Of a stretch of 64,000 nt of DNA, positions 5,740 through 62,708 are shown in pieces. Origin of the DNA: an uncultured delta proteobacterium (GTDB lineage Bacteria; Desulfobacterota; Desulfomonilia; UBA1062); NCBI GenBank assembly GCA_963752595.1, contig CAVVYZ010000005.1, forward strand, positions 314,751-378,750, read 5' to 3'. The notes below the pieces were generated by a model that saw only the letters and a list, made by a program, of their open reading frames with translations, was not told the DNA's origin and made no database searches. Position 1 is the stretch's first letter, and each line of letters begins with the position of its first letter. The translations under genes were made by a program, and so were the position numbers.

Positions 5740-8030
5740 GTAGGATCCTCGAATCTGTGCGATGTGGACTTTTCCCCCACGGCCGGGTCCATGGGAATGC
5801 GGATGACGAAGCGGGAGCCGGAACCAGGCCTGCTGGACACTTCCACTCCCCCATGGTGCATATCGACAATCTTCTGAACCAGAGCCAATCCAAGACCGGT
5901 CCCCTTCGCTTTATTGGTGTAGAAGGGCTGGAAGATTTGCTGGAGCTCTTCCTCATCCATCCCGCAGCCGGTATCCTCGATGCTGATTTCCATGGCATCT
6001 GCAACGAATTCGAAGCCTTGGGACTTAAACGTATGGCCTGGGACATGGGATGTCGAAATACCCAGTGTACCCCCCTCAGGCATGGCATCCAAGGCGTTTT
6101 CTATGAGATTTTCAATGAGCTGCCGGATCTGTATCCCGTCGATAATGAGCGTGTCATGCTCCGCATCCAGGGAAGTCCTGATTCCGATACCCCGGGCAAT
6201 GCAGTGATCGGTCCGGTTGAACAGGAGCCCGTCAATGATGTTGCTGATGCTGTACGGCTTGGGTTTTATCTTGCCCGAGCGGGTCCATTCAAGGACCTGC
6301 GTAACGAATTTCTCCAGAGTATCGATGCCGCTCGTGACCCCTTCGAGGATCTTCGTCTGCCGTTCCTCCAGGGGATGCAGATTGCGCAGGAGCTCAATGC
6401 CCGTTTTGATCTTCTGGAGGGGATTCCTCACTTCATGGGCAACATGGGCCGACATCTCCCCCAGGATCGCCATCTTCCGGGATTTCTCCAGCTCCCTCTC
6501 CATACTCTTTTTTTCGGTGACATCGATGATGGAGACGATGCTTTGTTTGGTCCCCGGGATCAGGCCGATGGAAAGGAATGCTTCCCTGATGGTGCCATGC
6601 TTGTCCAGGAGCAGGAACTCGTATTCGGACGGCACATCCTTCTTCCCTTCTCTGCGGGCCTTGTGGTAGCCAACCATGCGATCGATATAGCCGGGGTGGA
6701 CGATCTCGGTGAAGGGCATCTTGCCCTCCATCTCGTCTCTACTGTAGCCTGTGAGCTTCTCCATCTGCCTGTTGACCAGCGATATGATGCGGTTTTCTTC
6801 CAGGAGCATGATGGCGGTTCCCGTATGCTCCACCGTGGTGCGGTACTTTGTTTCGGATGCCCGCAGTGCCTTCTGCTGGTTGCGTTTCTGGGTGATATCA
6901 CGGATGATGTTCTGGGTTGCAGGCTTCTTCTCGTATTCGATGATGGAAGGCGTAATCTCGAAGGCCTTCCATTCGCCGCCTTTCGACCTCAGGGCAATCT
7001 CATACTGTTCCGGGACCTTCTCTCCCTTTATCCTCTTTTCATACCGCGTTTCGATGAGCTCGGCGATTTCGGAGCGCATGATGTCCCGGAAGCCTAAAGC
7101 GCTCAGCTCCTCGCTCGTATACCCCAGAAGCTCCCGGAACTTCGGATTCGTATACTTGAAGCGGTGGTCCTGATAGACAAAGATCCCGTCGTTTGCTTTC
7201 TCTACCAGGATACGGTATTTCTGTTCAGAGGATTTAAGCCTCTCCTGGACTTCTTTCATAGGCCTCAAATCCCGGAAAATGCTGATCCCTGCAATGGGCT
7301 TGTCGCCCTGATAAACATAGGATGCGGACAAAGAGATGGGAATGAGCGTTCCGTCCTTGATGTATAGGGAGGTTTCCTCCGCCACCACCCGGTAGGGCTT
7401 TTCCACCGTACCCTGGTCGAGGAGCTTGAGGATGCGTCTCCGCTCTCCTTTGCCCATGAAGTCATCGATGTTGATCGTACGGGAGAGCATGACTTCGGCT
7501 TTGTAGCCGGTGATCTCCTCGGCAGCTTTGTTGAAAACGAGGGCATTGCCCTGAAGGTCCGATGCGATGATCGCATCGCTCGAGTTCTCGATGAGGCCTT
7601 TCAGGAACTGGTTGTAGGATTCGACGGCCTCGACCATCTGCCTTCTCTCGGTAATATCCCTGGCAACGTTTAAGATGGCCGGGCCGCAGCCCAAGGTAAT
7701 AACCGAGGTCGAAAGGGAGATGATGCGTTCTACGCCGAATTTGGTGACGAAGAACACATCATATCTGCCGGGGATGTCCTCCCCGCGGATCAGCCTGGCA
7801 TATCTCTCTTCAAGCCCATCGACCGCATCCGGGCGGACGACGTCACGCAGGGACTTATCATCGAGTTCACCGGAACGAAAGCCCAAGTTCCTGCGGAATG
7901 CGGGGTTTACGTAGAAAAAACTGCTGTCCTGGTAGACAAAGATCCCGGCACTGGCCTTTTCTACCATAGTCTGGAATATGGCCTTGCTGATTTTCTTTGT
8001 GCTCGTATCCTTAGCTGCAACTGGCCCCAT
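5736..8030 (-). CDS. Cytoplasmic multi-PAS sensor histidine kinase
   Basis: About four PAS repeats (ending RDITE/RDLR/RDIT/IDVTE), H-box AHEVRNPL, N box ENALDAM, DTGCG, GTGLGL; no TM segment; 4-bp overlap with the regulator. Confidence 0.92.
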   Translation of the reverse strand: MGPVAAKDTSTKKISKAIFQTMVEKASAGIFVYQDSSFFYVNPAFRRNLGFRSGELDDKSLRDVVRPDAVDGLEERYARLIRGEDIPGRYDVFFVTKFGVERIISLSTSVITLGCGPAILNVARDITERRQMVEAVESYNQFLKGLIENSSDAIIASDLQGNALVFNKAAEEITGYKAEVMLSRTINIDDFMGKGERRRILKLLDQGTVEKPYRVVAEETSLYIKDGTLIPISLSASYVYQGDKPIAGISIFRDLRPMKEVQERLKSSEQKYRILVEKANDGIFVYQDHRFKYTNPKFRELLGYTSEELSALGFRDIMRSEIAELIETRYEKRIKGEKVPEQYEIALRSKGGEWKAFEITPSIIEYEKKPATQNIIRDITQKRNQQKALRASETKYRTTVEHTGTAIMLLEENRIISLVNRQMEKLTGYSRDEMEGKMPFTEIVHPGYIDRMVGYHKARREGKKDVPSEYEFLLLDKHGTIREAFLSIGLIPGTKQSIVSIIDVTEKKSMERELEKSRKMAILGEMSAHVAHEVRNPLQKIKTGIELLRNLHPLEERQTKILEGVTSGIDTLEKFVTQVLEWTRSGKIKPKPYSISNIIDGLLFNRTDHCIARGIGIRTSLDAEHDTLIIDGIQIRQLIENLIENALDAMPEGGTLGISTSHVPGHTFKSQGFEFVADAMEISIEDTGCGMDEEELQQIFQPFYTNKAKGTGLGLALVQKIVDMHHGGVEVSSRPGSGSRFVIRIPMDPAVGEKSTSHRFEDPT

Positions 8031-8115
8031 ATAACCTTGGAAAGATACACGATATGCGAAGGTCTATCAACTAAAAAACATATATTCGAGGAATTACAAT
8101 ACGCTAGAGAAGACG

Positions 8116-8634
8116 CTATGCCTTGAATTTTCCAAAATCTTCCGGGTTCATTTTTTCCAGGATTTCTTTGAGCTTTTCCTTGTCCTGCTCAAACCCGACA
8201 ATGACTTTGCCGGCCGATTCTTTGCCGGTTTCCACGCGGATGGCTTCTTTCACGACGTGGTTTGCGACATAAATAGAGCAATTGGCCCGGAGCGCAATGG
8301 CAATGGCATCCGATGGCCTGGCATCGATGGATAGCTTGTTTCCGTTATACTCCAGCGTAATCAGGGCATAGAACACGTTGTCCCTGATATCTACCACCTC
8401 GATCTTGTCCACGTGGACCCCGAGCGTCTCGATCATTGACTTGAAAAGGTCATGAGTCATCGGCCTGGAATAGTACACCCCTTCAAGGGAGGCCGCTATG
8501 GCGCTCGCTTCCATAATGCCGATCCAGATAGGGAGAACATATTTGCCTTCAAGATCCCTCAAGACCACAATCGGGGCGTTATTCGAAGGATCCAGGGCTA
8601 TTCCGGCCACTTTCATCTCTAAGAAACCAGACAT
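8116..8634 (-). CDS. Bifunctional nuclease family protein (DUF151)
   Basis: LPIWIG..EA, RPMTHDL, IDARPSDAIAIA. Confidence 0.9.
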   Translation of the reverse strand: MSGFLEMKVAGIALDPSNNAPIVVLRDLEGKYVLPIWIGIMEASAIAASLEGVYYSRPMTHDLFKSMIETLGVHVDKIEVVDIRDNVFYALITLEYNGNKLSIDARPSDAIAIALRANCSIYVANHVVKEAIRVETGKESAGKVIVGFEQDKEKLKEILEKMNPEDFGKFKA

Positions 8635-8680
8635 GTGTCTCCCTCCTATACATTAACATTAAGATCGTGCCCCACATTAG

Positions 8681-9520
8681 TCAATACGCAAAGGTGAGGG
8701 ATTCCAGAAGCGTCTCCATATCGAAAATCCCCTGCCCGATCACGATTCCTTCTCTTTCAAGCCGTTGCCGGACCGACAGCACCAGCGGGGCGGAAATTCC
8801 GGAAGCAGCCAGGACATCGATTTGACCGATGAGGTCTTCCCGCTTGAGATCGGCAACGATCCTTGCCCGGGATATGCCGATGCAGCGGTTTATATGGGCG
8901 AGAAAGTCTTCGAGATTGTGGGTTACGATCACGACCGTTGTATCCTGAAGGGTAGCCAGAATTCTTATCAGCTCGCGCCTGCCTTCCGCATCCATCCCGG
9001 CAGTCGGCTCATCCAGGATGAGCACCTCGGGCGAAGAAAGGAGCGCGGAGGCAAGTGCGAGCTTTCTCTTTTCCCCGGAGCTTAACCGGAAGGGAGAGAT
9101 CCGCCTGAGCGCGTCGATGTCCATCCCGAACCTCCCCATCAACGCCCGCGACATCTTCTCGATCTCAGTATCATCAAGGTCGAAGAAGTTCCTCAAGGAA
9201 AAGGTGAGCTCTTCATATGCGGTCTCATGGAAGAACTGGTGCTCGGGAAACTGGAACAGCACGCCGATACGCCGCCTGATGGAAAAGAGTTTCTTCCTCT
9301 TTGTCAGTGCCCGAACGCTCAAACCGTCAAAAAGGACATCACCTCTCGAAGGGAGAACCAGGGCATCGAGGAGCTGGATCAGGGTGGTCTTGCCGGAACC
9401 TGCCGGGCCGATGATTGCTACCTTCTCACCCTGGCCAATGGTCAGGCTGATATCCTGCAGGGCCCATTCATCACCGGGGACCTCGTATTTATAGGATACA
9501 TCGAGGCATTCTATTTTCAT
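8681..9520 (-). CDS. ECF transporter ATPase (EcfA2/CbiO-like)
   Basis: GPAGSGKTT, LFQFPEHQFF, SPFRLSSGEKRK, LDEPTAGMD. Confidence 0.82.
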   Translation of the reverse strand: MKIECLDVSYKYEVPGDEWALQDISLTIGQGEKVAIIGPAGSGKTTLIQLLDALVLPSRGDVLFDGLSVRALTKRKKLFSIRRRIGVLFQFPEHQFFHETAYEELTFSLRNFFDLDDTEIEKMSRALMGRFGMDIDALRRISPFRLSSGEKRKLALASALLSSPEVLILDEPTAGMDAEGRRELIRILATLQDTTVVIVTHNLEDFLAHINRCIGISRARIVADLKREDLIGQIDVLAASGISAPLVLSVRQRLEREGIVIGQGIFDMETLLESLTFAY

Positions 9521-19609: not shown

Positions 19610-19624
19610 TCACGGGGTGAGGGA

Positions 19625-20683
19625 ATGTTTTTCGAAAAGAAGACATTATTAGGACTGGATATCGGATCTCAATCGATTAAAATGGTTGACGTTGCAAAGG
19701 TCCGGGGAGGCTATGAACTGAAATCCCTTGGCTTGGGGCTGATTCCTGCAGAATGCATCGTTGACAAGGACATCATGGATTCGGAAACCGTAGTTGATAC
19801 CATAAAGAACTTGCGGGATAATCTCAAGATTCGCAGCCGGGGGACCGCGAGCGCCATTTCCGGCCATTCCGTTATCGTGAAAAAAGCGGAATTGCCACTC
19901 ATGAGCGAGTCCGAGCTGCAGGAAACACTCATGATCGAAGCAGAGCAGTACATCCCCTTCGACATCAATGATGTGTATCTCGATTCTTATATCCTTGGAG
20001 AGAGCCTGGAACGGTCTGACATGATGGATGTCCTCTTTGTAGCTTCAAAGAGGGAACTCGTGGATGATTATGCATCGGCCGTGAGGAATGCAGGTCTGAA
20101 ACCCATGCTCATGGATATCGACGTATTCGCCTTGGAGACAATGTACGAGGTGAACTACCCCGATGCCCCGGAATCGATCGTTGCCCTTGTAGACGCCGGC
20201 GCGTCAATGATCAATATCAATGTGCTCAAAGACGGGATGTCGATTTTTGCGCGAGACATATCCATGGGCGGCCGTCAACTCACGGAACGAATACAGCGAG
20301 AATTCAGCGTGAGTTATGAAAGGGCGGAAAACATCAAGGTGGGCTCGGATATCGAGGGCATAGATCTCGAAAGGATAAACCATATCTTCAGAATGGCGGC
20401 TGAGACCTATGTACAGGAGATCCGCAGGACACTGGATTTCTTCCTCTCCACCATGGTGAACGAGAATATAGAGCGGATCTACATGTCCGGCGGTTCCTGC
20501 AGGATACCGGGGCTGGTTAGCCTGCTGGGACGACAAATGGATATACCGGTCGAAATGGTAAACCCTTTCAATAATATCCGCTGGGACGATAAGATCTTTG
20601 ATCCGGAATATATGGCCTACATCGCACCCCAGATGGCCGTGGCGGTGGGTCTTGCTTTAAGGAGGGCCGATTACAAATGGTAA
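19625..20683 (+). CDS. pilM: Type IV pilus assembly ATPase-like protein
   Basis: GLDIGSQSIK, EAEQYIPF, VDAGA, SGG, AVAVGLALR. Confidence 0.93.
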   Translation: MFFEKKTLLGLDIGSQSIKMVDVAKVRGGYELKSLGLGLIPAECIVDKDIMDSETVVDTIKNLRDNLKIRSRGTASAISGHSVIVKKAELPLMSESELQETLMIEAEQYIPFDINDVYLDSYILGESLERSDMMDVLFVASKRELVDDYASAVRNAGLKPMLMDIDVFALETMYEVNYPDAPESIVALVDAGASMININVLKDGMSIFARDISMGGRQLTERIQREFSVSYERAENIKVGSDIEGIDLERINHIFRMAAETYVQEIRRTLDFFLSTMVNENIERIYMSGGSCRIPGLVSLLGRQMDIPVEMVNPFNNIRWDDKIFDPEYMAYIAPQMAVAVGLALRRADYKW

Positions 20684-21210
20684 AGATCAACCTGCTCCCT
20701 ATAAAATCGGAACTACGGCAAAAGGCCCTTATCGAGCACATTGTGCTTCTGTCCTTGTGTGTCGTTCTTATCTTTATCCTCTCCTGGTTTGTACAAACTT
20801 CGATCACAAATAAAAAAGAATCCCTCCAGCAAGAGATGACGAGTACGAAGCTCGAGATAGCGAAACTCACAGCCGAAGCAGGCGAAATCGAAAAGTTCAA
20901 ACAACAGAAACAGGAACTGGAGAAAAAGCTCAATGTCATTAAAGATCTGAATGCAAAGAAGTCCGGACCTGTGGAAATTCTTGACCAACTGAGCCTGCTC
21001 ATCCCTGAGAAGGCATGGGTTACCTCGATGGAAAATGCCGGGAATAAACTCGTTCTCAACGGGGTGGCAGTAGACAACCCGACAATAGCTGCATTCATGA
21101 AGAGTCTCCAGGCCTCCTCCTATTTCGAAGGAGTAGAGCTCGAGCTCACTGAGCAACAGGGCATGAATCACAAGTTTACCATCAAGTGCCAGATAAAGCT
21201 GCCGAGCTGA
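20677..21210 (+). CDS. pilN: Type IV pilus assembly protein
   Basis: INLLP N-terminal motif, TM, coiled coil; operon position. Confidence 0.92.
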   Translation: MVKINLLPIKSELRQKALIEHIVLLSLCVVLIFILSWFVQTSITNKKESLQQEMTSTKLEIAKLTAEAGEIEKFKQQKQELEKKLNVIKDLNAKKSGPVEILDQLSLLIPEKAWVTSMENAGNKLVLNGVAVDNPTIAAFMKSLQASSYFEGVELELTEQQGMNHKFTIKCQIKLPS

Positions 21211-21218
21211 GGTGATAT

Positions 21219-21839
21219 ATGAATCCTATTGATTTCATATTAAGACAAAAACCAGCCATCAAGATACTCGCTCTCGTCTTCATTCTTGGGGCTATCCTGG
21301 GAGTATACTGGCAGGTCTTCTACAAGCCTGTGGTGGCAGAAATAAAGATCATTGAGCCCGAACTCAATAAGCTCAAAATAGAGCTTTCCCAGAAGAGAGA
21401 TATCGTAAAAGAAAAACCCAGGTATGAAGCAGAGCTCGAACAGACGAGGGCAGAGCTCCACATTGCCTTGAAACAGCTCCCGAACAAAAGCGAAATCCCC
21501 ACCTTGCTGGAGAATATTTCCTCGCTGGGAATGTCTGCCGGATTGCAGTTCAAGCTCTTTAAGCCCAAGGGTGAGGTTCCGAAGAATTTCTATGCGGAGA
21601 TACCGGTAGATATCAAGGTCGAAGGAAGGTACAGGGATATCGTCTCGTTCTTTGACGAGGTATCGAAGATGCCGAGGATAGTCAATATTTCCGATATATC
21701 GATGCAGAATATCACGAAAAGCGGTGGCGGGCCTCTATACTTAAGCACTTCCTGCAGTGCCACGACATATAAATTTATTGAAGAGACAGCAAAACCAAAC
21801 GAAACGGCAAAACCAAACGAAAAAGGGAAAGCAAAATGA
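21219..21839 (+). CDS. pilO: Type IV pilus assembly protein
   Basis: QLPNKSEIPTLL, FYAEIPV, MPRIVNI. Confidence 0.92.
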   Translation: MNPIDFILRQKPAIKILALVFILGAILGVYWQVFYKPVVAEIKIIEPELNKLKIELSQKRDIVKEKPRYEAELEQTRAELHIALKQLPNKSEIPTLLENISSLGMSAGLQFKLFKPKGEVPKNFYAEIPVDIKVEGRYRDIVSFFDEVSKMPRIVNISDISMQNITKSGGGPLYLSTSCSATTYKFIEETAKPNETAKPNEKGKAK

Positions 21840-22357
21840 AAGGGTATCTATCCGTACTTATCATAATCATGTCGGTAGCTGTCGTTTCATGCTCAAAGGG
21901 CAATAACCAGTCCCAGACCTCACCGGGAACCTCTTCCAATGCCGGTACCGCAAAGCAGGAAAAGGTAACACCCGTAATGGTACAGGAAGAGCAGAAGAAA
22001 CCCGAGTACCAGGTAATCGGGATAAGGGACCCCTTCCAGCCGTTTTTGACATCACTGACAAAAGAAGATGAAATGAAGAAAGGTATTATCGATCCCCTCC
22101 AGAGGATCTCCCTTTCCCAGATCGGGATAGTAGGCGTCATTCTCGGGCATGATAAACGCGCACTCATCCAGGAATCATCGGGGATGGGATATATCATCAA
22201 GGAAGGAAGCCTCGTGGGAGAGAACTCGGGGATCGTGACCGGGATTACAGCCGATGGGGTCACCATAAAACAACATTTCAAAGACTACATGGGGCGCGTG
22301 AATACACGGGAAATAGTGTTGTCGCTCAGGAAGGAAGAGGGGGTAACTGGAAAATGA
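21836..22357 (+). CDS. pilP: Type IV pilus lipoprotein
   Basis: Lipobox VVSC, RDPFQP, DPLQ, GENSG. Confidence 0.88.
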   Translation: MKGYLSVLIIIMSVAVVSCSKGNNQSQTSPGTSSNAGTAKQEKVTPVMVQEEQKKPEYQVIGIRDPFQPFLTSLTKEDEMKKGIIDPLQRISLSQIGIVGVILGHDKRALIQESSGMGYIIKEGSLVGENSGIVTGITADGVTIKQHFKDYMGRVNTREIVLSLRKEEGVTGK

Positions 22358-24204
22358 ACAAGAAAATCATCCATACTGTAATAATCGGCCTATTGTTGAT
22401 GCCCGCATGTGGGTTTGGGCTGACCATACAGAGCGTTGATTTCATGACGGTCGAGAATAAATCAAGGCTCCAGATCGGTCTCGACGGGAAGGCCGCCTTT
22501 GATGTGACACGCACAGGAGACAAGCTTATCCTCCGAATTGATAATGCAAAAATACCGAAAAATCTCGCGCGTCCCTTTATCACATCGGAATTCGAGACCG
22601 CTGTCAAAGAGTTCCTCCCGAAGCAGAAGGGAAAGGATGTCCTGTTCGATGTAACCATGAAAAAGGTTGTCCCGTATTTCGTATCCCAGGACAAATCAGT
22701 CCTTATTATGGATTTTGATATTCCCGATTGGGCAAGGAAAGCAAATCAGGAAACAAAAAATCAGGCCGTAACCGTTCAGCAGGCAAGTACGACCAAACAG
22801 GTGGCCCAGCTCATGGGTAAAGAGAAGCAAGCCCCTTCACAGGCAAAAGGAGCTTTCCTGTCTGCAAAATCAAATGACTTCATCAACGAATCAACCAGGG
22901 AACCAAAGTATATAGGAGAGCGCATATCGCTCGATTTCCAGAATGCGGATATTCACAATGTCTTGAGGATCATTGCTGACGTCAGCGGCCTCAATATCGT
23001 TACATCAGATGAAGTAAAAGGCAACATCACCATCAGGCTCAAAGACGTCCCTTGGGATCAGGCTCTCGATGTCGTGCTGGAAAGCAAAGACCTCGGAAAG
23101 ATGGAAGTGGGCAATGTGGTGAGGATAGATGCCGCAGAAAAGATTAAAAAGGCACAGGAAAGAAAACTCGAATCCCTGAAAACCGAAGAGCAGCTCGAGC
23201 CCCTCGTCACTTCCGTTATCCCTGTGAATTTTGCAAAGTCCTCTGAAGTCGCAAAAACGATCAAAGGCAAGGAAGTGGGCCTGGTATCCGACCGGGGCAG
23301 CATTACTGCAGAAGACAGAACAAATGTTCTCATTGTAAAAGATATCAAGAAAAATGTCGATGATATCAATGCGATGATCAAACGTCTTGACAAGGCGACA
23401 CCCCAGGTACTCATCTCCGCACGGATCGTACAGGCAGACGATGACTTCACCAGAGGCCTCGGAGTCCAGTGGGGAGGTTCATGGAGAAACCAGTCGGACA
23501 GGACACATTTCGGTCTCACAGGCGTCAATTCCGGAGCTGCAAGGGATCTCTTCAGCTCAACGACCACTCCGGGAGGTAGTCCCACCTGGTCCACATCGGT
23601 CGTTCCAAGCCCGTCTCTTGCAGTCAACTTCCCGACCAACCAGGCGGCAGGATTCGGCATTTCTGTTGGAAGGCTTGCAGGGTCATCCTTTGATCTCGAT
23701 CTCAGACTGGATATCGGCGAGTCGATAGGAAATGCAGAGGTAATTGCACGGCCGAAGATCGTTACCATGGACAACAAAAAGGCCACGATCCGCCAGGGCG
23801 AGAAATATCCTTACATTGTAAGGGATAAGGATGGGCAGCTCTCCACAGAGCTCAAGGACATCGAGCTGGTCCTTGAAGTGACACCGCGCATTGCCTTTGA
23901 TGGCAGCGTCAATATGGAGATCTCGGTAAAAAGGAATGCGCTCGGCTCCATCAAGAACGCGCTGGGAGATCCGAGTATCTCCTCCCGTGAAGCACAGACA
24001 GAGGTGCTCGTGAGGAACGGGGAGACTTCGGTCATCGGCGGGATCATCGAAGAAGAGGTACGCCAGAATATCAACCAGGTACCCTTCCTCGGGAGATTAC
24101 CCGTCGTAGGCTTCCTCTTCAGGGGAAAGACCATCGACAAATCCAAAAAAGAGCTACTGATCTTCATTACACCCCAAGTGCTCGAACCGGTGGCAATTAA
24201 ATAA
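22354..24204 (+). CDS. pilQ: Type IV pilus secretin
   Basis: ISLDFQNAD, VPWDQALD, QVLISARIV, VPFLGRLPVVGFLF, ELLIFITP. Confidence 0.95.
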   Translation: MNKKIIHTVIIGLLLMPACGFGLTIQSVDFMTVENKSRLQIGLDGKAAFDVTRTGDKLILRIDNAKIPKNLARPFITSEFETAVKEFLPKQKGKDVLFDVTMKKVVPYFVSQDKSVLIMDFDIPDWARKANQETKNQAVTVQQASTTKQVAQLMGKEKQAPSQAKGAFLSAKSNDFINESTREPKYIGERISLDFQNADIHNVLRIIADVSGLNIVTSDEVKGNITIRLKDVPWDQALDVVLESKDLGKMEVGNVVRIDAAEKIKKAQERKLESLKTEEQLEPLVTSVIPVNFAKSSEVAKTIKGKEVGLVSDRGSITAEDRTNVLIVKDIKKNVDDINAMIKRLDKATPQVLISARIVQADDDFTRGLGVQWGGSWRNQSDRTHFGLTGVNSGAARDLFSSTTTPGGSPTWSTSVVPSPSLAVNFPTNQAAGFGISVGRLAGSSFDLDLRLDIGESIGNAEVIARPKIVTMDNKKATIRQGEKYPYIVRDKDGQLSTELKDIELVLEVTPRIAFDGSVNMEISVKRNALGSIKNALGDPSISSREAQTEVLVRNGETSVIGGIIEEEVRQNINQVPFLGRLPVVGFLFRGKTIDKSKKELLIFITPQVLEPVAIK

Positions 24205-34406: not shown

Positions 34407-34602
34407 GATAAACTCTATTGCAACGATTCAACAATCTATTCTCTTTGCACTTGGGTAATATCATGGAACCCTTTCTTCTGGTCTTCCAAGGTTATCTCGT
34501 CTCCTTATCACAAAGAGCGTTTTTTTCCGTTCTATCAAGGCTTGGAGACGATCGTTAAAGTGGAGAATCTCATATGCCGATAGGCATTACCAAGGTGATT
34601 TA

Positions 34603-36311
34603 ATGGCGAACGAACGTATAGGCGATCAACTCATAAAGAATGCTTTGATTACCCCGAACAGCTCCTTGAGGCACAAAAAGCCCAGAAGGTATCCGGGACG
34701 AGGCTCGGGTCCCAGCTGGTAAAGCTCGGACATATCACCGAAGAGCAACTGGTGGATTTCCTCGGGAAGCAGTATGGCCTTCCGTCGATAATCCTGAAAG
34801 AACTCAATCCGGATCCGGACGTTATAAAGCTCATCCCGGTCAATATCGTTCAGAAATACAATGCCATAGCCTTTGAGCGGAACGGCTCCACCCTCAAGGT
34901 CGCCATGACGGATCCCACCAATATCTTTGCCGTAGATGACCTTAAATTCCTGACCGGCTATTCCATCGACGTCCATGTCACCTCCGAAGAGTCCCTGAAA
35001 TGGGCCCTGGATCATTACTATGATCAGGCCGCATCCCTGGACGATGCCCTGAGCAGCATGGAAGACGAGCAGGGCAATATGGAGGTTGCGACAGAGGGAA
35101 GCGATGCAGCGGTCGGCGATCTGGAAAAAGAGGCGGATCAGGCACCGGTTATCAAGCTGGTGAACCTTACCCTCGTGGATGCCATAAAAAAAGGCGCGAG
35201 CGATATTCATATCGAGCCCTACGAAAAATTCATGCGCATACAGGTTCAGGCTGGACGGCATGCTCTATGAAGTCATGAAACCTCCGATCCGGCTGAAAAA
35301 CGCCTTAGTATCCCGGTTGAAAATCATGGCCAAGCTCGACATCGCCGAACGCAGACTTCCCCAGGACGGGCGTATCAAGTTGAGGGTACAGGGCGGAAAA
35401 GAGGTCGAATTCCGGGTCTCCGTTCTACCCACCCTCTTTGGCGAGAAGGTGGTCTTGAGAATCCTGGATAAATCCAATCTGCAGCTGGACATGACCAAGC
35501 TCGGGTTCGAAGAAGGCGCACTTGCCAGATTCAAGGAAGGCATCTATAAACCATGGGGCATGGTCCTCGTAACAGGTCCTACAGGTTCAGGAAAAACAAC
35601 AACACTATATTCGGCAATTTCCGAACTCAACAAGATCGACAGCAATATTTCGACAGCTGAAGATCCTGTGGAGTTCAACATGCCCGGAGTGAACCAGGTG
35701 CAGATGCATGAAGAGATCGGCCTTACCTTTGCCGCTGCCCTGAGATCCTTCCTCAGGCAGGACCCGGATATTATCCTCGTGGGAGAGATCCGGGATTTTG
35801 AAACAGCGGAGATCGGCATAAAGGCAGCATTAACCGGTCACCTCGTCCTCTCTACACTGCATACCAACGATGCGCCATCCACAATAAACCGACTTCTCAA
35901 TATGGGCATCGAGCCATTCCTCGTTGCATCGTCCGTGAATCTCATCGTGGCCCAGAGGCTTGCCAGAAAAGTCTGCCCTGCATTGCAAGGAACGGGATGA
36001 CGTCGTCGTTGGAGACCCTCATCCAGATGGGTATGGATCAGGAAGCATGCCCAGAAGATAGAGTGCTTCAAGGGAAAAGGCTGCTCCGTATGCGGGAATA
36101 CCGGATATAAGGGAAGGATAGCCCTCTATGAAGTCATGCCGGTAACCGAAGCGATACAGAGAATTGATTCTCATGGGTGCATCGGCAACCGAGATCAAGA
36201 ACGAAGCAATTACCCAGGGGATGAAAACCCTGAGACAGAGCGGCCTCACCAAGATTCGTCGAGGGCGTGACTTCAGTCTCCGAGATTTTGAGAATCACCA
36301 TGGCAGATTAA
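34603..36311 (+). CDS. pilB: Type IV pilus extension ATPase, reconstructed across about seven single-base indels
   Basis: Fragments give an MshEN-like N-term, [40 protein letters not shown], CxxC...CxxC..TGYKGR; TAA at 36309-36311. Confidence 0.88.
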
Positions 36312-36326
36312 TCATGGGAGGAACTT

Positions 36327-37439
36327 TTGGAACAACAGCATATACGATCTCCTCAAGACGATGGTGGAAAAAGGGGCTTCAGACCTGCATATTACAACGG
36401 GATCACCGCCACAGGTACGAGTCCGGGGAGAGCTTTATCCCCTTGATGCACCCATCCTTGATCCCCAGGTCCACAAGGCAGATACTGTATTCAATCCTTA
36501 CCGAGGCTCAGAAACACAAGTTTGAGGAAGAGCAGGAACTGGATCTCTCCTTCGGAATCAAAGGCCTTGCCCGATTCAGGGCAAATATCTTCATCCAGAG
36601 GGGTGCGCTTGCCGGGGTGTTCAGGATGATCCCCTATGACATCGTCGCCCTTGAAACCCTTGGGCTCCCGAATACGTGATGCAAGCTCACGTACCTTCCC
36701 GAGAGGACTCGTCCTTGTGACCGGACCGACAGGGAGCGGAAAATCCACAACACTGGCCGCGTTCCTCGATAAAATCAATACGGAACGCCACGATCATATT
36801 GTCACCATAGAAGATCCCATAGAGTTCGTACACAAGCACAAGGATTGTATCGTCAATCAGAGGGAAGTCGGAGCGGATACAAAGAATTTTACCAATGCGC
36901 TCAAATATATTCTGAGGCAGGACCCGGACGTCGTATTCATCGGAGAGATGCGAGACCTGGAGACCATGCAGGCAGCTCTTACCATTGCCGAAACAGGCCA
37001 CCTGGTTTTTGCGACGCTCCATACGAATTCTGCTGTGCAGACAGTGAATCGCGTCGTGGATGCCTTCCCGGCCCACCAGCAATCCCAGGTACGGGCGCAG
37101 CTGTCTTTTGTACTCGAAGCAGTAATCTCCCAGCAGCTCCTGCCGAGGTCGGACGGAAAAGGAAGAGCTCTTGCATCGGAACTGATGATATCAACACCTG
37201 CCATCAGAAACCTGATCAGGGAAGATAAAATTCACCAGATCTATTCCCAGATGCAGGTGGGACAGACAAAGCATGGCATGCAGACCATGAATCAGTCATT
37301 GTTCAACCTTTTCACACGTAAAGCCATATCCCTTGACGATGCACTGGGATGGTCCATGGACCCGGACGAGCTGAGACAGATGATGGCTTCGCCCAACCAG
37401 ACCAGAGTAACACCCCCGAACCTTAAGGAAAGGAGATAA
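36327..37439 (+). CDS. pilT: Type IV pilus retraction ATPase, frameshifted in the 5' part
   Basis: [49 protein letters not shown]. Confidence 0.9.
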
Positions 37440-37442
37440 ACC

Positions 37443-38638
37443 ATGCCGGTTTTTGTTTGGGAAGGCAAGCTCGCAAACGGAACCATTAAAAAGGGAGAGA
37501 TCGAGGCGGATTCAAAAGGATCCGTGCAACTTCTGTTAAAGCGCCAGCGCATAGTTCCCACAAAAGTAAAGTCAAAACCGAAACAGATCACGCTCTTCGA
37601 CCAAAAGGTCAAGACAAAAGAAATCGTTATCTTCACCAGGCAGTTTGCCACCATGATCAATGCCGGTTTGCCATTGGTTCAGTGTCTTGATATCCTCTCA
37701 TCCCAGCAGCCAAACCCGACGTTTAAGAAGATCCTCTCACAGATCAAACAGGATGTGGAAAGCGGCAGCACCTTTGCCGATGCCCTGGGCAAGCATCCGA
37801 AAGTCTTCGACAGCCTTTTCGTCAATCTCGTTGCCGCAGGCGAGGTCGGTGGCGTACTGGATACCGTCCTGATACGGCTGGCAGTATATATGGAAAAGGC
37901 TGAGGCCTTGAAGGCGAAGGTTAAAAGCGCCATGACCTATCCCGATCATAGTACTTTTGAGTAGCCTTCCTCGTGGTAGCCGTGCTCATGATATTCGTCA
38001 TCCCGACCTTCAAAGACATGTTCGAGCAGTTCGGTGCAGCCCTGCCGGGGCCTACCCAGCTGGTGGTGGATTTGAGTAACTTCTTCCGGAACTACTGGTA
38101 CGTCATGGTGGTCGTTATCGTGTTTCTCATTGTCGCCTTCAAGTGGATCGGCAAGCAGGAAAAGGGAAGGTTTTATCTGGATACCTTGGCCCTGAAGCTC
38201 CCCATATTCGGTTCTCTTATCAGAAAAGTAGCCGTAGCAAAATTCACGAGGACCCTGGGAACCATGATCTCTTCGGGCGTCCCCATCATGGACGGACTTG
38301 ACATTACCTCCAGGACTGCAGGGAATGTCATTATCGAGAATGCGATCAAATCTGTCAGAAAAGCTATCAGCGAGGGTCAGTCCATGGCAGAACCCCTTGC
38401 TCAGTCAGGCATATTCCCGGGTATGGTGGTGCAGATGATTTCGGTCGGCGAAGCGACAGGTGCAATGGATCAGATGCTCTCCAAGATCGCCGATTTTTAT
38501 GACGAAGAGGTGGATGCGGCAGTCGATGCCCTCACTTCAGCACTGGAGCCCATGCTCATGGTATTCCTTGGCGGCGTAATCGGTTTCGTTGTCGTTGCCA
38601 TGTACCTGCCAATATTCAAGATGGCGGGCAGCGTATAA
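37443..38638 (+). CDS. pilC: Type IV pilus platform protein, frameshift near 37945-37960
   Basis: FTRQFATMINAGLPL, GEVGG.LD, AMTYP; second ORF VGEATG, LEP, MYLPIF. Confidence 0.9.
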
Positions 38639-40528: not shown

Positions 40529-41236
40529 TCATGATTGCAACAAGATGGACCCGCTCACGAACTCGCGGATGGATCCGGATACGTTCACCAGAAGATGGCC
40601 CTGCATATCGAGATCTGTAATCCTGCAAGGAATTCCCTCTTCTGTGGTTATTTCATGATCATGGAGAAGTCCGTATTTAAGAAAAGCTTTCCTTACCGGA
40701 GAGAACCCCTGTGTGGAGAAAAGGGAATACCACGTATCAATGCTGAGGACTGCACGCTCCAGGACGCTCTCTTTATCCAGGTCTTCACCAATAACTTGCG
40801 CAAGTGAGGTTGCCCTGCCTTCGAGAAACGGAGGCCAGTTCCTCTGATTTACGTTTATCCCGATGCCGATTGCCGTGATCTTCCTGGATTCGCACAGAAT
40901 TCCGCAGATCTTTTTTCCCCCGGCAATGATGTCATTGGGCCACTTGATTTCAACAGGAACAATACCCTTGGTGAGATAGGAGGATACTGCTTCATGGATC
41001 GCAACGCCGATCACGAGAGGCAGCCTTGAATCCGAGCTGCCTACCGTGATGGTCATATAGATATTCGATCCCCTGGGTGAGAACCAGGAGCTGCCCAGCC
41101 TCCCCCTCCCGGAAGTCTGCTCGGACGCAGTGACCAGAAGCCCGACCTTCCCGGAATCTAGGGCAAAGGTATTTGTGGAGTCTACCTCACCCAGCTCGAT
41201 TGCTTCCCGGACGATTCCTGCAATGGGCTTAGGCAT
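40529..41236 (-). CDS. birA: Biotin-protein ligase (no HTH)
   Basis: VDSTN, QTSGRGRLG..W, IKWPND, KICGILCE, GIGINVN. Confidence 0.92.
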   Translation of the reverse strand: MPKPIAGIVREAIELGEVDSTNTFALDSGKVGLLVTASEQTSGRGRLGSSWFSPRGSNIYMTITVGSSDSRLPLVIGVAIHEAVSSYLTKGIVPVEIKWPNDIIAGGKKICGILCESRKITAIGIGINVNQRNWPPFLEGRATSLAQVIGEDLDKESVLERAVLSIDTWYSLFSTQGFSPVRKAFLKYGLLHDHEITTEEGIPCRITDLDMQGHLLVNVSGSIREFVSGSILLQS

Positions 41237-43873
41237 TATCCTTCAAGCAGCTCGTGGGCCTTGAGCAGTTTCCCCAGCTTGAGTTCGAGCTCGCCTTTGA
41301 TCCTCATCTGTTCTTCAACGACTTCCGGGTTCGCTTTCTCAAGGAAATCCTTATTGGAGAGCTTTTTGCGTTTCCCTTCCAGTTCTTTTTCCAGTTTTGC
41401 TATCTGCTTATCGAGGCGGTCTTTCTCCTTATCGATGTCGATCACGCCTTCCAATGGAACATAAACTTCAGCCTCTCCGGTAACTGCCAGCGCACAGTGT
41501 TTCGGCCGGGGAGCCCCTTCGGGGATGAGCCCGATCGATTTTACCCGGGCCAGATCCCTGATGAAGAAACCGTACTCGCTTACCGCCTCCTCGATCTCCT
41601 TTGATTTCATCCGCAAGACGATATCGAGCTGGGTCGAAGGCGGGATGTTCGTTTCTCCGCGGATACTCCTCACCCCTGAGATTATATCTATGATGTATCC
41701 CATCTTCCGGGCCTTTTCCGGGAAATTCAATTCACTATCCTCTTTCGGGTACCGGGCTATTACGATCGACTTTTCGGACGATCCGGGCAGATCCTGCCAG
41801 ATCTCTTCGGTTACAAAGGGGATCATCGGGTGGAGCAGCTCGAGAATGGATCTGTAGACATGACAGAGGGTCCATTTTGTGTAGGATGCAGCTTCCGTGT
41901 TCAAAAGCGGCTTTGAGAGCTCGATATACCAGTCGCAGAACGTGTGCCAGGTAAACTGATAGAGACTGTCGGCAGCATCGTTAAAGCGATACTCTTCCAG
42001 GGCGCTCCTCGTAGACCGTATAGCCTTATTGAGCTCGGTGAGGATCCAAGCATCTGCTAGGCTTAAGCTATCGGCATCCACGGGAACGCTCCGGGGGTCG
42101 AATCCCTCGATATTGCTCAGAACGAATTTCCCGGCGTTCCAGATCTTGTTGATAAAGAAGCGGTAGCCCTGTATCCGTTTGTCGCTGATCCTCACGTCCC
42201 TGCCCATGGCGGCAAAGGCTGCCAGGGCAAAACGGAAGGCATCCGCTCCGTACTTGTCCATCTCGACAATGGGATCGACGATATTACCCTTTGATTTGCT
42301 CATCTTCTGGCCCTGTTCATCCCGGACCAGCGCATGGAGATATACATCATGGAATGGGACATCGTGCATGAACTTGATTCCCATCATCATCATCCTGGCA
42401 ACCCAGAAGAAAAGAATATCAAAACCGGTGATAAGCACATTCGTAGGGTAAAACTTCCGGAGCGCCTTGGTGTCTTCCGGCCATCCCATAGTCGAGAACG
42501 GCCACAGCCCGGACGAGAACCAGGTGTCGAGAACATCGGTTTCCTGCCTGATGTTCCCCGACTTGCACTTTGAACATGCCGTTGGATTTTCTTCGCTGAC
42601 GATGATCTCTCCGCATTCTTCGCAGTACCATGCCGGAATGCGGTGGCCCCACCAGATCTGCCGGGAGATGCACCAGTCACGGATGTTGTTCATCCATTCA
42701 TAGTAAGTCTTTTCCCACTGCTTGGGTATAATCCTTGTCTTGCCTTCTTTCACTGCCTCGATAGCCTCTTGTGCAAGGGGCTTTGCCTTCACGAACCATT
42801 GCTTTGAGAGATAGGGCTCGATCGTGGTCTTGCAGCGGTAACATTTCCCGACAGGGACCTTATACGGCGTTTTGTCAATGAGATAGCCCTGATCCTGAAG
42901 ATCCTGTTCGAGCCTCTTCCTGCATTCAAAACGGTCCATTCCCTTATATGGTCCTGCGTTCTCATTCATGACCCCGGATTCATCCATGATCACGATGACT
43001 TCCAGACCATGTCTCAGGCTCATTTCATAGTCGTTGAGATCGTGGGCAGGTGTTACCTTTACTGCACCGGTGCCGAAATCCATATCCACGAAAGGATCGG
43101 CAATTATCGGGATGCTCCTGTGAATGATCGGGAGCACGACATGCTTACCGATCAGGGCGGTGTATCTCTGGTCTTTCGGATTGACCGCGACAGCAGGTAT
43201 CACCGAGCATGGTCTCCGGCCTGGTAGTGGCAACCACCACCTCGCCGTTTCCTTCAGCAAGGGGATATCTGATATGCCAGAGGAATCCTTCCTCTTCTTC
43301 ATGTTCCACTTCCAGATCCGACAGGGCGCTGTGGCATCTGGGGCACCAGTTCACGATGTAGTCGCTCCGGTAGATCAGACCTTCCTGATAAAGGGTAACA
43401 AACACCTTGCGCACTGCATTCGAGAGCCCCTCATCCATGGTAAATCTGATCCTGTCCCAGTCACATGATGCCCCCAAGCGCTTGAGCTGATTGATAATGA
43501 GGCCTCCGTGCTTTTCTTTCCACCTCCACACCTCTTCGATGAAAGCCTCTCGCCCGAGATCATGTCGGGACAGACCTTTGGCAGCCAGGTCCTTCTCGAC
43601 CACATTCTGTGTCGCGATACCCGCATGGTCGGTCCCCGGCATCCACAAGGCATCGAAGCCGTCCATTCGCTTGTAGCGAATCATAATATCCTGCAGGGTA
43701 TTATTCAATGCATGGCCCATGTGAAGGACTCCGGTTACATTCGGCGGAGGAATCACAATCGAATAGGGAGGCCTGTTGTTATCGTTCTCGTCGGCGTGAA
43801 AATATCTTTTCTCGAGCCAGAGCTCGTACCACTTCTGCTCGATGTCTTTGGGGTCGTACTCTCTATCCAGCAT
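41236..43873 (-). CDS. valS: Valine-tRNA ligase, one extra base near 43197
   Basis: [29 protein letters not shown]; removing one C restores [17 protein letters not shown]. Confidence 0.95.
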
Positions 43874-44113: not shown

Positions 44114-44945
44114 TCAATCAAGCTTCTTGAGCTTATCGATTTCTTCCCGGATCACCTTCTCGACAATACCCGGAAGCTGTTCCCGTGTAGCTGCAATTAT
44201 CTCTCTGACAAGTTCGGATATGAGCGGTGTTACCACAGCTTCAACCATACCGGGTATCTCCTGCTTCAAATCGCCAAGGTCTTCTCCGGTTATCCGGGAA
44301 GGAGCCGCATCCTGGAACGGATCGGTCTCTAGAGCCATATCCATCCCCATGCTCCTTTTCGCCCCGGCTGATGCCGGCTTCGGATCTTCCGGTATTACCT
44401 CTTCACCATCAAGGGCCCCGAGATCCTCCCTCACCGGGTCAGGTTCGGTTATCTGCTCTTCGCGCTTACTTTCGGTTCCTTCTTCAAGATTGAGATCTAA
44501 CTCTTTCTCAACATTTTCTTCAGCTGCAGCATACACATCTTTCTGTTTCTTACCAGGGAACGGATCGGACTCGCTTGATGGAATCATATCTTCTTCAAGG
44601 ATCTTTTTAGCGGCTTCGTCCAGATCAAGTCCTGATTCCCCGGCCGTATCTTCCGTCATCACGGCGGCTTCTTCGGTTTCCTTTTCCTCCGTAAGAGCTA
44701 TTTCCTCATTGGGGGAGAGGCTTGCATCTATATCAACGGTTTCTCCCCCATGCTCAATCTCCTCTACAGAGACATCGTACTCCATGGAGATTTCCTTGCC
44801 CAGGTCAAAGGAATCCGGTTCATTTGCCTGTTGCCGCGGGCCGGCCGCCCTCTTTCTTTCCCTTGCTCTTTTTCGAGGTGTCTCCCTCTTCCAGCAGGTC
44901 CGTAAGATCAATAATATCATCGTCATCAAGCATCTTATCTGCCAT
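44114..44945 (-). CDS. Acidic, largely disordered protein with RomR/PopZ-like C-terminal helix; frameshift near 44825
   Basis: ATG at 44945 after AAGGAG gives MADKMLDDDDIIDLTDLLEEG; the C-term reads LPGIVEKVIREEIDKLKKLD. Confidence 0.65.
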
Positions 44946-44989
44946 ATCCATCTCCTTTTCTCTCCCCTTTAAGGAATAGCATTCATTCC

Positions 44990-46306
44990 TTAATTCTTCA
45001 TAATCGGTTGCCCGGTTGACTCTTTTACCGACATCCAGAGGCTCCCGTTTATATCGATTTTCTTTCTCTCTCCCACACTCAAGGCTATGGGAATATGGAC
45101 ATATTCATTGTTCCATAATCCGATGAGCATATCAGTCTTCCCGCTCATACCGGCATGGACTGCCATCTGGGCGAGGAATCCGCAGAAAATGGAGTCGGCG
45201 GCATTCGCCACGACGCTCCGTATCACATAGCTCGGATCAATATACTTCAAGTTGACGGGAATGGACTGTGAATAAAAATAATGCTCTATCCTTTCCTTGA
45301 GCAGCAGCCCGATGTCACCCTTCTTCACATTCCCGGATGGGTCCATCTGCTTGGGGAGGTCCTGGAAAAATTTCTGACCCGCCCCTTCTGCGGCTACGAT
45401 CACTGCATGCCCCCTGAGTTTAAGCCTTCGTTCAAGAGTTGCAAGAAGCCCATTTTCCCCCTCGAGATCAAAATCCTCTTCGGGTACGAGTACAAAATTT
45501 GCATCCCTGCATGCAAGGGCAGCATTTGCAGCGATAAAGCCCGAATCCCTTCCCATGAGCTTAACGAGTCCTATGCCGTAAGGCGCCCCCTTTGATTCTG
45601 CATGGGCGCACTGGATGACCTTTCTGGCCTCTTCCACGGCTGTATCAAAGCCGAAGGTCTTGGAGACGAAATTGATATCGTTGTCTATGGTTTTGGGAAT
45701 CGCTATTACCGAACATCGATATCCTCTGGAGAGGACCTCGTTGGCAACGCACGAGGCTGCCTTCATGGTTCCGTCCCCACCGATAAAGAACATGATGTTT
45801 ATGTTCGACCGCTCGATTGCATCAACTATCCGGCCGATATCCTGGGATCCACGGGATGAACCCAGGATCGTACCCCCCAGCTCGTGGATATTTTCCACAT
45901 ATGAGGGGGTAAGCTCGATAAATGAGTGACGATAGCTCGGAATAAATCCCTGGAGTCCATAGGGAATCCCATAAACATTCCCGACCCCGTACATGTAGTA
46001 AAGCTCAAGGACGATCCCCCGTATCACATCGTTTATTCCGGGGCACAATCCTCCGCAGGTAACAATACCGCACTTGGTTTTGGAAGGATCGAAAAAGATC
46101 TTGTTCCTGGGGCCGGCGAGCTCCAATGAAGGGATCTCCTTGTTATCCTGTAGGTAACGGTCAAGGGCGCTCCGTGAGGAATCGATGAGTATCCTCTCAG
46201 AATCATCCATACATTTAGTCGTTACCAGGAGCGGGGAATCTATTGTCGGGATGCCCACCAACGGCACGATGGTATTGATTCCCTCTCCTTCAGTTTCTCC
46301 ATTCAT
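44990..46306 (-). CDS. pfkA: ATP-dependent 6-phosphofructokinase (group X type)
   Basis: TCGGLCPG, GGTILGSSRG, IGGDGT, PKTIDND, LMGRDSG, YIDPSY. Confidence 0.9.
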   Translation of the reverse strand: MNGETEGEGINTIVPLVGIPTIDSPLLVTTKCMDDSERILIDSSRSALDRYLQDNKEIPSLELAGPRNKIFFDPSKTKCGIVTCGGLCPGINDVIRGIVLELYYMYGVGNVYGIPYGLQGFIPSYRHSFIELTPSYVENIHELGGTILGSSRGSQDIGRIVDAIERSNINIMFFIGGDGTMKAASCVANEVLSRGYRCSVIAIPKTIDNDINFVSKTFGFDTAVEEARKVIQCAHAESKGAPYGIGLVKLMGRDSGFIAANAALACRDANFVLVPEEDFDLEGENGLLATLERRLKLRGHAVIVAAEGAGQKFFQDLPKQMDPSGNVKKGDIGLLLKERIEHYFYSQSIPVNLKYIDPSYVIRSVVANAADSIFCGFLAQMAVHAGMSGKTDMLIGLWNNEYVHIPIALSVGERKKIDINGSLWMSVKESTGQPIMKN

Positions 46307-46550
46307 GGAACAGCCTCCAATATGCAAGTATATCGGTTTTTTGTTACCCCATCTTTATTACTCCCTGACCTATTCATCAAGGCCGAATTGTCTTTATCTG
46401 CATATTTCACAAGGTACATTATACAAAAACCATTTGTTCTCGGAAAGGCAGATTTTCTCTATCAGCATTTTGATGGAATATTGTATGATTCCTGATGCCT
46501 TGTACTGAATCTTTTCACCCTTACCCTTCTATGCTATAGGCCTTTTCGAT

Positions 46551-61014: not shown

Positions 61015-62708
61015 GTGTCCATCCGGAAACCGGCATTTCTGGAAGAGGAATGGGTTGATAAGCACGGCATATCTCTGCATTTCTTATCTCCTTTTGAAAA
61101 ATACCGGTCCGGATGACTCGATTACCTGATACGTACCCGACAACACCTGATTTTAAACGTAGCTCACCCTTGGTTATAGCGATTGACCTCGGATCGCATC
61201 CCTTCTAAGCCCGTGACAGATTGATCCGGGCAAGCACCAGCAGGTTGTAAGATACAATGCTACTCCATACATATTGCTTGAATCCCTTCCAGCCGGACCA
61301 TGTGCAGCGGTCTAACCCGAAGGCTCTCTTCAGTGTCGAGATGCCGGCTTCGATCCCTGCTCGGAAATTGCGCAGTGCCTTGTACACCCACGCACTCTTT
61401 GCCATATCAAGCACCGACAACCCCCGCTTTTTGGCAAACACCGCGTCCTTTACCTGCTTACCCTTGGCAAATACCAGATTATCATGAGAAGCAAAGCCTC
61501 CATCAGCACTGACCTTCAAGGGCATCCTCCCATACTGAGAAGCATGCCTCTCAAGCAGCGGCTTGTACTTCTCGCTGTCCGCAGGGTTGCCTCGTTCAAT
61601 CATACAGTCAAGGATCAGATTGGAAGATCCGCCGGTCAGAAAAACCTTGTGCCCATACTCGGTATCCCTTCTTCCCTTTACGATAATGTCGGTGTGCTCC
61701 TCAAAGAAGGACACGATCTTCTCCGAGGCAGGAACCTCCTCCCCCCGGATAACCCGGCGCTCCGTCTGATCGATGATCCTCCTCAGAAGACCCACGGCCC
61801 GCTCAAGCTTCAAGGCAAGGTCATGGGCTGCCAACGTGTCCAGGACGTTGCCCCCTTTGAATTCTTCAAGCTCGGGAATCGCTTCCATGGCATACACAAC
61901 CACGCGCTCGGCATAGGCGAGCAAGTCCCGGTAGGCCGCTTCCCGTACCGTGTCCTTCCTGGCATTGAGAATGACTATAACCCGCTTCTTTGCCCCACGC
62001 GTATGATCGGAAAATACATAACCAGGCTGAGGATTGAGCTCTTTACCCTCTGCAAGCATCCGGGTCATGACCCGGATGCCATCCCACAGAAGCGTCGAAT
62101 CCGTCGGATGGTGAATATCCGTCTCCACGACCGTAGAATCAATCCTGATCTTCCTCCCCGTCTCAATACTCTTGCGCTTCGCATAGAGAAGTATCTCCCG
62201 ATGAATCGCTTCCCATGTCTCATCCCCAAGAGACTTGATGTTCTCCTGCAAAACTGACGTGCAGGGATGCTGCCACCTCTCCAAACGGGAAAACTCACGG
62301 AATGACCAGGAATCATCCAGATGATACGAGAGCTCTTCATAGCTGAGTTGACGATACTGCTTCAATATCGCACACCGAAGCACCTGCTCGGCACTCATCC
62401 CTTCTCGACCCGTGTCTGCACGTGCCTCCCTGGTAAGATCCTCATATACAATCTCAACCAACCTCGGGGTCTCATCAAGTACTTTCGATATCTGCTCAAG
62501 TTCTTTCGCTATGGGCTTGCTGCTCGGCGATGTAAAAAGACTCATCTGGGGATTGAATTTCTGTCTCATTTTTCTCATCCTCTTGCTATGATTAATAAGT
62601 ATTATCAACCCTTTACATATTAACCCTAGCAGATTTTACCACAATCCCCAATGAGAAAATGCTCTTTATGCAAATTATTTTAACGGGTTATACTTTCCGG
62701 ATGGACAC
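61015..62708. mobile_element. Complete insertion sequence (1694 bp), ISNCY (ISDol1-like)/IS5-related
   Basis: Perfect 15-bp TIRs GTGTCCATCCGGAAA (61015-61029) and TTTCCGGATGGACAC (62694-62708); 6-bp target duplication TAGATA at 61009-61014 and 62709-62714. Confidence 0.92.
61205..62578 (-). CDS. DDE transposase
   Basis: RIDSTVVETDIHHPTD, ADGGF, FRAGIEAGISTLKR; intact ORF. Confidence 0.92.
   Translation of the reverse strand: MRKMRQKFNPQMSLFTSPSSKPIAKELEQISKVLDETPRLVEIVYEDLTREARADTGREGMSAEQVLRCAILKQYRQLSYEELSYHLDDSWSFREFSRLERWQHPCTSVLQENIKSLGDETWEAIHREILLYAKRKSIETGRKIRIDSTVVETDIHHPTDSTLLWDGIRVMTRMLAEGKELNPQPGYVFSDHTRGAKKRVIVILNARKDTVREAAYRDLLAYAERVVVYAMEAIPELEEFKGGNVLDTLAAHDLALKLERAVGLLRRIIDQTERRVIRGEEVPASEKIVSFFEEHTDIIVKGRRDTEYGHKVFLTGGSSNLILDCMIERGNPADSEKYKPLLERHASQYGRMPLKVSADGGFASHDNLVFAKGKQVKDAVFAKKRGLSVLDMAKSAWVYKALRNFRAGIEAGISTLKRAFGLDRCTWSGWKGFKQYVWSSIVSYNLLVLARINLSRA

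Follow-up and report, generated by a model that had tools for sequence, protein, structure and literature searches.

The gene described here lies on the minus strand at 44114..44945 of a 64,000-nt window (the whole stretch of DNA that was analysed), is read in two frames, and encodes a receiver-less, RomR/PopZ-like acidic protein. The features of the gene and its surroundings are as follows:

44114..44945, minus strand: whole gene for the receiver-less RomR/PopZ-like acidic protein, from the two frames and intact orthologues
44952..44957, minus strand: Shine-Dalgarno-like AAGGAG, 6 nt 5' of ATG 44945, from the sequence
44883..44927, minus strand: N-terminal acidic-hydrophobic motif DDDDIIDLTDLLEEG, resembling the D-[VI]-[LF]-[DE]-L-T-[DE] motif within PopZ linkers
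44834..44846, minus strand: frameshift site, most likely an assembly error, from two contigs and intact relatives
44753..44821, minus strand: second conserved motif EPDSFDLGKEISMEYDVSVEEIE, family-specific, a candidate client-binding element, from orthologue comparison
44273..44752, minus strand: acidic linker of low complexity that varies in length and sequence and is predicted to be disordered
44117..44272, minus strand: amphipathic helix of the C-terminus that has three conserved prolines and resembles RomR-C and PopZ H3H4
41236..43873, minus strand: valS, the conserved downstream neighbour, split near 43192
44990..46327, minus strand: ATP-dependent 6-phosphofructokinase, directly upstream, conserved there within the family only
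19610..24201, plus strand: pilM to pilQ type IV pilus cluster, context without a demonstrated link
34599..38638, plus strand: pilB, pilT and pilC as partial ORFs, context without a demonstrated link

Frame A, entered at ATG 44951 or ATG 44945, carries DDDDIIDLTDLLEEG and reaches a stop near 44820, and frame B is open from 44929 to 44114, carries the acidic linker and ends in VTPLISELVREIIAATREQLPGIVEKVIREEIDKLKKLD. The product measures ~276 aa from ATG 44945 or ~278 aa from ATG 44951, with an X at the break; ATG 44945 is the likelier start because AAGGAG stands 6 nt before it. The layout given in the sequence-only reading (an N-terminal motif masked by a frameshift, an acidic linker of ~200 aa, an amphipathic tail and valS as the next gene) was recovered in full on the minus strand; the second conserved motif (EPDSFDLGKEISMEYDVSVEEIE / EPDSFDLGKEISM...) had been missed. 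That reading had also ascribed disordered linkers, acidic or Pro-rich, to PopZ and RomR. The 202-aa linker here contains 28% D + E, 10% K + R and 6% Pro with a net charge of -0.18 per residue; it is acidic, not Pro-rich, and predicted to be disordered (low pLDDT and composition). In an AlphaFold2 model of an intact orthologue, confidence was low throughout except in the helix at 222–274, and a complex prediction with three tail copies scored 0.28 against a mark of 0.42, a value that was counted neither for nor against assembly. Neither a PDB sequence search nor Foldseek returned a significant match, and a scan of the locus for promoters and terminators gave hits at chance level. None of the sequencing runs listed as carrying the gene was of RNA. 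As had been claimed, there is no REC domain: Response_reg did not match, and the orthologues start at the acidic motif.

The frame breaks near 44844, and two extra bases at that point restore it in two near-identical contigs, one from each of two studies; these contigs, at a depth of 2.4–3, reach only 24 and 28 nt past the site, below the tool's 31-nt bridging rule. valS is split as well, at ~43192, and pilB, pilT and pilC are partial ORFs, which marks the assembly as indel-prone and leaves the other split genes of the window open to doubt. The frameshift is thus most likely an assembly error. It would be read otherwise if the gene were a true pseudogene in the source organism, as the frameshift in the window sequence and the failure of both restoring contigs to satisfy the bridging rule might suggest; but the same two bases occur in contigs from two studies, the essential valS is broken in the same assembly, and 21 of 22 relatives are intact, the last being cut by a contig end, which together leave a pseudogene with hardly any probability. 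Elsewhere in the window, positions 1–8700 differ from 8700–64000 in holding many long overlapping ORFs, with tungstate/molybdate ABC and sigma-54 regulator-like genes recognised by eye. An IS-like ORF was seen at 61208–62635.

In a search with the 60-residue tail, 22 of 24 family genomes each gave a single orthologue, against 0 of 16 searched from the class's other family; in four genomes of that other family no such gene precedes valS. Among the 22 relatives, 21 have a single intact ORF with the N-terminal motif. valS, which in the window starts 241 nt downstream of the gene on the same strand, is directly downstream in 18/22 (two of the remainder end at a contig end and two have another gene), and phosphofructokinase is upstream in 20/22. 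Conservation across the family lies in both N-terminal motifs, the second of which reads EPDSFDLGKEISM..., and in the final 50 residues. In the tail, L43 P44, E48, E53 and E54 are invariant, and none of the 22 tails has a Trp. In the 20 long forms, the linker measures 126 to 240 aa, its net charge lies between -0.12 and -0.36 and its Pro content between 5 and 17%. One record labelled Bacteriovoracaceae (L026) encodes a protein identical to that of a same-family genome (G012), and its label is probably wrong.

Across the phylum, a broader tail profile (A3), run on 301 genomes, matched 116. We read 90 loci, made up of the 30 best and 60 spread over families; the window itself is among them, as are four members of its family and a duplicate, and related genomes make these counts non-independent. 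Receivers were present in 39 loci, 30 of them with the RomR Trp, and absent from 51, a few of which are cut or uncertain in their start and one of which has the Trp. valS lies directly downstream in 33/39 receiver-bearing and 36/51 receiver-less loci. Most receiver-less forms begin with an I-I-[DE]-L-[TV]-[DE] motif, which also stands right behind the receiver in five of the eight Trp-less receiver-bearing proteins, and the family profile itself retrieves proteins with REC and Trp. In 30 genomes without a profile match, valS was found in 28; ~9 have a divergent member directly upstream (partly by eye), and ~19/28 have nothing similar before valS, as do the Burkholderia and Acinetobacter records. 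romR of Myxococcus xanthus (MXAN4460) is flanked by a Val-tRNA synthetase gene (PMC2034494; here and below, published systems are described from the accessible parts of the papers cited). Given this valS linkage across the phylum, the gene holds the romR position, and we regard it with high confidence as a romR-slot homologue. A quick, midpoint-rooted ValS tree of 71 rows needs six changes of the receiver-less label, of which well-supported branches force only one; repeated loss of the receiver is therefore suggested rather than shown, and its direction is not set by this tree.

Two further kinds of variant were seen in the survey. Short forms of 75–165 aa (L030–L033, L035–L042 and L049–L056; Syntrophales-labelled where named) carry the acidic motif once, twice or three times, with Arg where RomR has its Trp; their slot is away from valS, behind a probable rsmI and with a probable thrS a few genes further on (by eye). 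In others the C-terminal helix is repeated three to six times (L063, L067, L073, L106, L113 and L124; P0122, P0153 and P0236), and these are natural analogues of engineered higher-valency PopZ variants.

The tail was compared with PopZ and RomR by hhalign over ~40 helical residues. The PopZ set comprised 118 tails from metagenomes, retrieved with a search pattern that includes part of the tail motif; family membership was confirmed for two by Pfam and for one by NCBIfam. The first RomR set was chosen by our own profile. With these sets, the family tail aligned to PopZ-C at 95.9% (score 42.4) and to Trp-type RomR-C at 95.6% (41.3), PopZ to RomR directly at 91.6% (32.1), and the other receiver-less forms to RomR-C at 98.4% (66.0); reversed controls scored at most 22.8 and 40 column shuffles of each at most 20.5. 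An independent set of 80 RomR sequences gave 88% (31) against the family and 85% (28) against PopZ, and its rank in the source genome was non-significant (E 12). The similarity to both C-termini that had been predicted thus stands. A profile built from the family only, without any alphaproteobacterial sequence (A1), had popZ as its sole match in 3/3 alphaproteobacterial replicons (3.7, 4.6 and 0.85 Mb; E 4.5e-4, 1.2e-3 and 0.09) and no match in two non-alphaproteobacterial records. In the other direction, the PopZ and RomR profiles each placed the window ORF first of 55,595 ORFs of its own genome, at weak E-values (0.31, 0.07 and 0.08). One of the records used has side features of its own: the Sinorhizobium meliloti popZ (L291:1263-2187) is frameshifted and absent from the listed annotation, and the 3.7 Mb record that holds it is titled a plasmid and looks like a chromosome.

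Position and linker agree with the tail. Of the PopZ loci, 49 have 700 nt or more of downstream DNA, and valS follows in 30 of them; the popZ–valS linkage is in print for Caulobacter, Agrobacterium and Magnetospirillum (PMC5686542, PMC6414705); conserved valS linkage, as stated in the sequence-only reading, therefore extends over the family and both the RomR and PopZ groups. The D-[VI]-[LF]-[DE]-L-T-[DE] motif occurs in 38/63 PopZ linkers (0.01 when shuffled). The acidic motif is present in 29/43 other receiver-less and 5/8 receiver-bearing Trp-less proteins and in 1/29 and 0/77 Trp-type RomR; a profile match on the motif alone is weak (27%).

Family models did not assign the protein to PopZ. 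DUF2497 (PF10691) scored 20.8 bits on the gene product, below its cut-off of 27, the NCBIfam model PopZ_fam (NF052660) did not match it, and DUF2497 run over 151 genomes of the phylum gave one sub-threshold match and none over the cut-off. The client-binding helix H1 of PopZ reached at best 2.9 bits (hhalign 0.6%) and H2 at best 5.6 bits (hhalign 0.1%) in the gene product, in which an extra helical segment could stand in for H2. Atlas scores against DUF2497 clusters were 0.84–0.85, at lead level, and in whole-library protein searches nothing labelled PopZ appeared among the best 120 of 836 and the best 150 of 541 matches, which were mostly unnamed family members.

Two candidates from other proteobacteria were discarded. 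An ORF located between holC and valS in Pseudomonas resembled the gene by eye, but its tail scored 16.3, no better than reversed controls, and it was kept as a control; since an acidic helical protein in the same slot reaches only 16, the PopZ tail match is not a generic one. This conserved 122-aa ORF (L294:2012-2380), labelled 'DNA polymerase III subunit chi' and without a Pfam match, begins in an H1-like manner (hhalign 23%), and homology of its Pro-kinked tail to PopZ/RomR is unsupported. DUF2486 as a betaproteobacterial member was a weak atlas lead (0.78), and nothing exceeded the cut-off in the records searched.

Roadblock (MglB/MglC-type) proteins, counted in 83 of 84 genomes with one ambiguous case left out and with non-independent kin, were present in 23/23 genomes with Trp-type RomR, 2/9 with Trp-less and 5/51 with receiver-less forms, and in none of the 19 genomes of the gene's own family. 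They thus track the Trp form and not the receiver-less forms, which fits the requirement for W394 of RomR in MglC binding (PMC12719032) and the binding of RomX by REC, through which RomR is connected to MglA (10.1101/2024.02.20.581209). A look-up of mglA and mglB had been proposed: in the source genome the former has a counterpart in an orphan MglA-like GTPase (316 aa, 56% identity, with a C-terminal extension) directly after an SgmX-like TPR gene, and a roadblock MglB was not found. The SgmX-like TPR gene, the MglA-like GTPase, a TPR membrane protein and a DUF4388 gene form one run (L256:4303-8949; G000:C9:138302-142948) that is conserved in 4/6 other loci checked and is a candidate minimal polarity module. 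MglA-like GTPases were detected in 22/22 family genomes. Outside the family, loci of family f10 (L260, L261 and G152:C58) have a second MglA-like gene ~10 kb from romR–valS.

Our main reading, to which we give a probability of roughly 60%, is that the gene product is a static, oligomeric cell-pole scaffold of a RomR/PopZ-like family upstream of valS. By analogy with experiments on RomR and PopZ, copies of the C-terminal helix would bind one another, probably in a coiled coil of three, and collect at the pole: it is RomR-C that drives both oligomerisation and localisation to the pole (10.1101/2022.12.09.519731, PMC3441718), and PopZ H3H4 is a trimer (PMC12999525). For the acidic linker the role would be that of a repulsive spacer, as in PopZ (PMC9512792), and the two N-terminal motifs, of which the second is a candidate client-binding element, would bind client proteins. 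The protein lacks the receiver, with its RomX docking and phosphorylation switch, and the Trp for MglC docking, and would therefore neither oscillate nor enter a RomR–MglC–MglB complex. The scaffold may mark the pole for client proteins, among which the SgmX-like/MglA-like pair, parts of the pilus and proteins of chromosome segregation are candidates. On its own, the output domain of RomR is found at the pole but stays static, without pole switching (PMC2034494), and by analogy this receiver-less domain is the closest experimental model of the gene product. Formation of a condensate is doubtful, because H2, which is necessary for condensation in PopZ (PMC12999525), has no match here.

Three other readings were weighed against the polar scaffold. 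The similarity to PopZ could be convergence between acidic proteins with Pro-kinked amphipathic tails, with the gene a degenerate RomR and the valS linkage coincidental. The match is indeed short and below the family cut-offs, the direct RomR–PopZ score is only 28–32 and the atlas scores stay at lead level; yet the tail, the second motif and the valS position are three separate features in agreement, best matches are reciprocal across whole replicons, and the reversed, shuffled and same-position Pseudomonas controls all lie far lower. We consider convergence improbable, and common ancestry of the family with PopZ likely. If this acidic protein were oligomeric but worked away from the pole, in a chaperone-like or translation-linked function for instance, its persistent co-location with valS and, in the short Syntrophales-labelled forms, with thrS would be explained, but both characterised relatives in the same slot are pole proteins and many genomes carry nothing similar before valS (~19/28, and the Burkholderia and Acinetobacter records), so that such a role has very little to recommend it.

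A pilus role for the gene is possible from sequence context, without being singled out by the evidence. The most explicit form of this reading is a trimmed RomR whose narrow task is to place the type IV pilus machinery, with the orphan MglA-like GTPase and the SgmX-like TPR protein as intermediaries, and in which the PopZ resemblance is secondary. The source genome has pilM, pilQ, pilB, pilT and pilC, the GTPase directly follows the SgmX-like gene and occurs throughout the family, the pair recurs in 4/6 other loci, and pilM is present in 47/52 receiver-less genomes. However, pilM also passes the cut-off in 8/12 genomes without the detected gene, and with pilM near-universal in the sample its co-occurrence was rejected as non-discriminating evidence. 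Family f7 moreover keeps the gene with pilM in 0/5, MglA in 0/5 and roadblock proteins in 0/4 of the genomes searched, an MglA-like match was absent from 24/42 receiver-less genomes outside the family, and the REC domain through which RomR is linked to MglA is missing. We therefore consider this reading unlikely, and specific positioning of the type IV pilus, as first proposed, is not borne out.

A static polar scaffold related to both families would bear on several questions. The accessible part of 10.1101/2022.12.09.519731 states that the way in which RomR-C gets to the pole and reinforces itself is not known; homology with PopZ H3H4, if true, would offer a testable answer in the form of a trimer, higher-order assembly and accumulation in DNA-free poles. 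With a relative in ~40% of the sampled Desulfobacterota genomes, polar scaffolds, possibly condensates, would reach anaerobic syntrophs and sulfate reducers. PopZ linkers are described, in the accessible texts, as lacking primary sequence conservation, and the motif held in common with them is a new target for mutagenesis, and natural variants in linker length and helix repeat number could be parts for synthetic condensates. The likeness of the tail to RomR and PopZ suggests one ancestor for both. In a wider and tentative scenario, which we place somewhat below even odds, RomR and PopZ would both go back to a single ancient gene for a pole scaffold next to valS, the receiver-less Trp-less forms of Desulfobacterota would be condensate-forming PopZ-like organisers with the shared acidic motif as client site, and RomR would be the switchable version, with REC and the MglC-binding Trp.

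In the literature outside subscription papers, a claim of homology between RomR and PopZ was not found. PopZ appears alongside RomR in the accessible texts as a tool or an analogy, the accessible part of the 2026 PopZ structure paper (PMC12999525) does not mention RomR, and in the PopZ literature consulted by topic, as far as accessible, PopZ is described only from Alphaproteobacteria. RomR of M. xanthus and its homologues consists of REC, a disordered linker and RomR-C (PMC2034494, PMC3441718); Geobacter-type and Myxococcota-labelled homologues stood in for M. xanthus RomR in our comparison. The gene resembles romR in its slot before valS, and its product in the (predicted) disordered linker and in a Glu-rich C-terminal helix with an invariant Pro and an EEI..L end, and Trp-less and receiver-less forms in the phylum form a continuum joining the two. 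Unlike RomR, the product has neither a receiver nor the Trp found in the W-E-V-V-P motif, has extra Pro-kinked helical segments and carries two N-terminal motifs missing from Trp-type RomR, and its family has only the orphan extended MglA-like gene, roadblock MglB/MglC being absent from all 19 genomes searched. With alphaproteobacterial PopZ (PF10691 DUF2497, NF052660; PMC9512792, PMC12999525) it shares a receiver-less three-part layout, an acidic linker, a D-[VI]-[LF]-[DE]-L-T-[DE]-type motif, valS downstream and a tail whose alignment with H3H4 takes in both prolines, the P146 equivalent as well as that of the L-P ahead of the last helix. It differs from PopZ in scoring under both family cut-offs, in having no match to H1 or H2, in a 7-residue insertion that the tail alignment requires between the prolines, in Leu at the position of W151, in a Lys-rich rather than Arg-rich end, in a linker with ~6% Pro against 29% in Caulobacter, and in phylum. 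Rare RomR homologues without REC or RomR-C, in genomes lacking complete MglA/MglB, were noted by Keilberg et al. 2012 (PMC3441718), where, in the accessible text, 1/28 RomR-C matches is without REC; loss of REC together with incomplete MglA/MglB is common to both data sets, and some receiver-less forms counted here may belong to theirs. Those were exceptions, whereas the receiver-less forms here make up 51/90 loci and have a conserved motif of their own. To call the locus an undescribed system was therefore too strong for one gene in the romR slot. As judged from its sequence, the gene product is neither RomR, having no REC and no Trp, nor PopZ by the family cut-offs, and it probably works like the shared core of RomR and PopZ.
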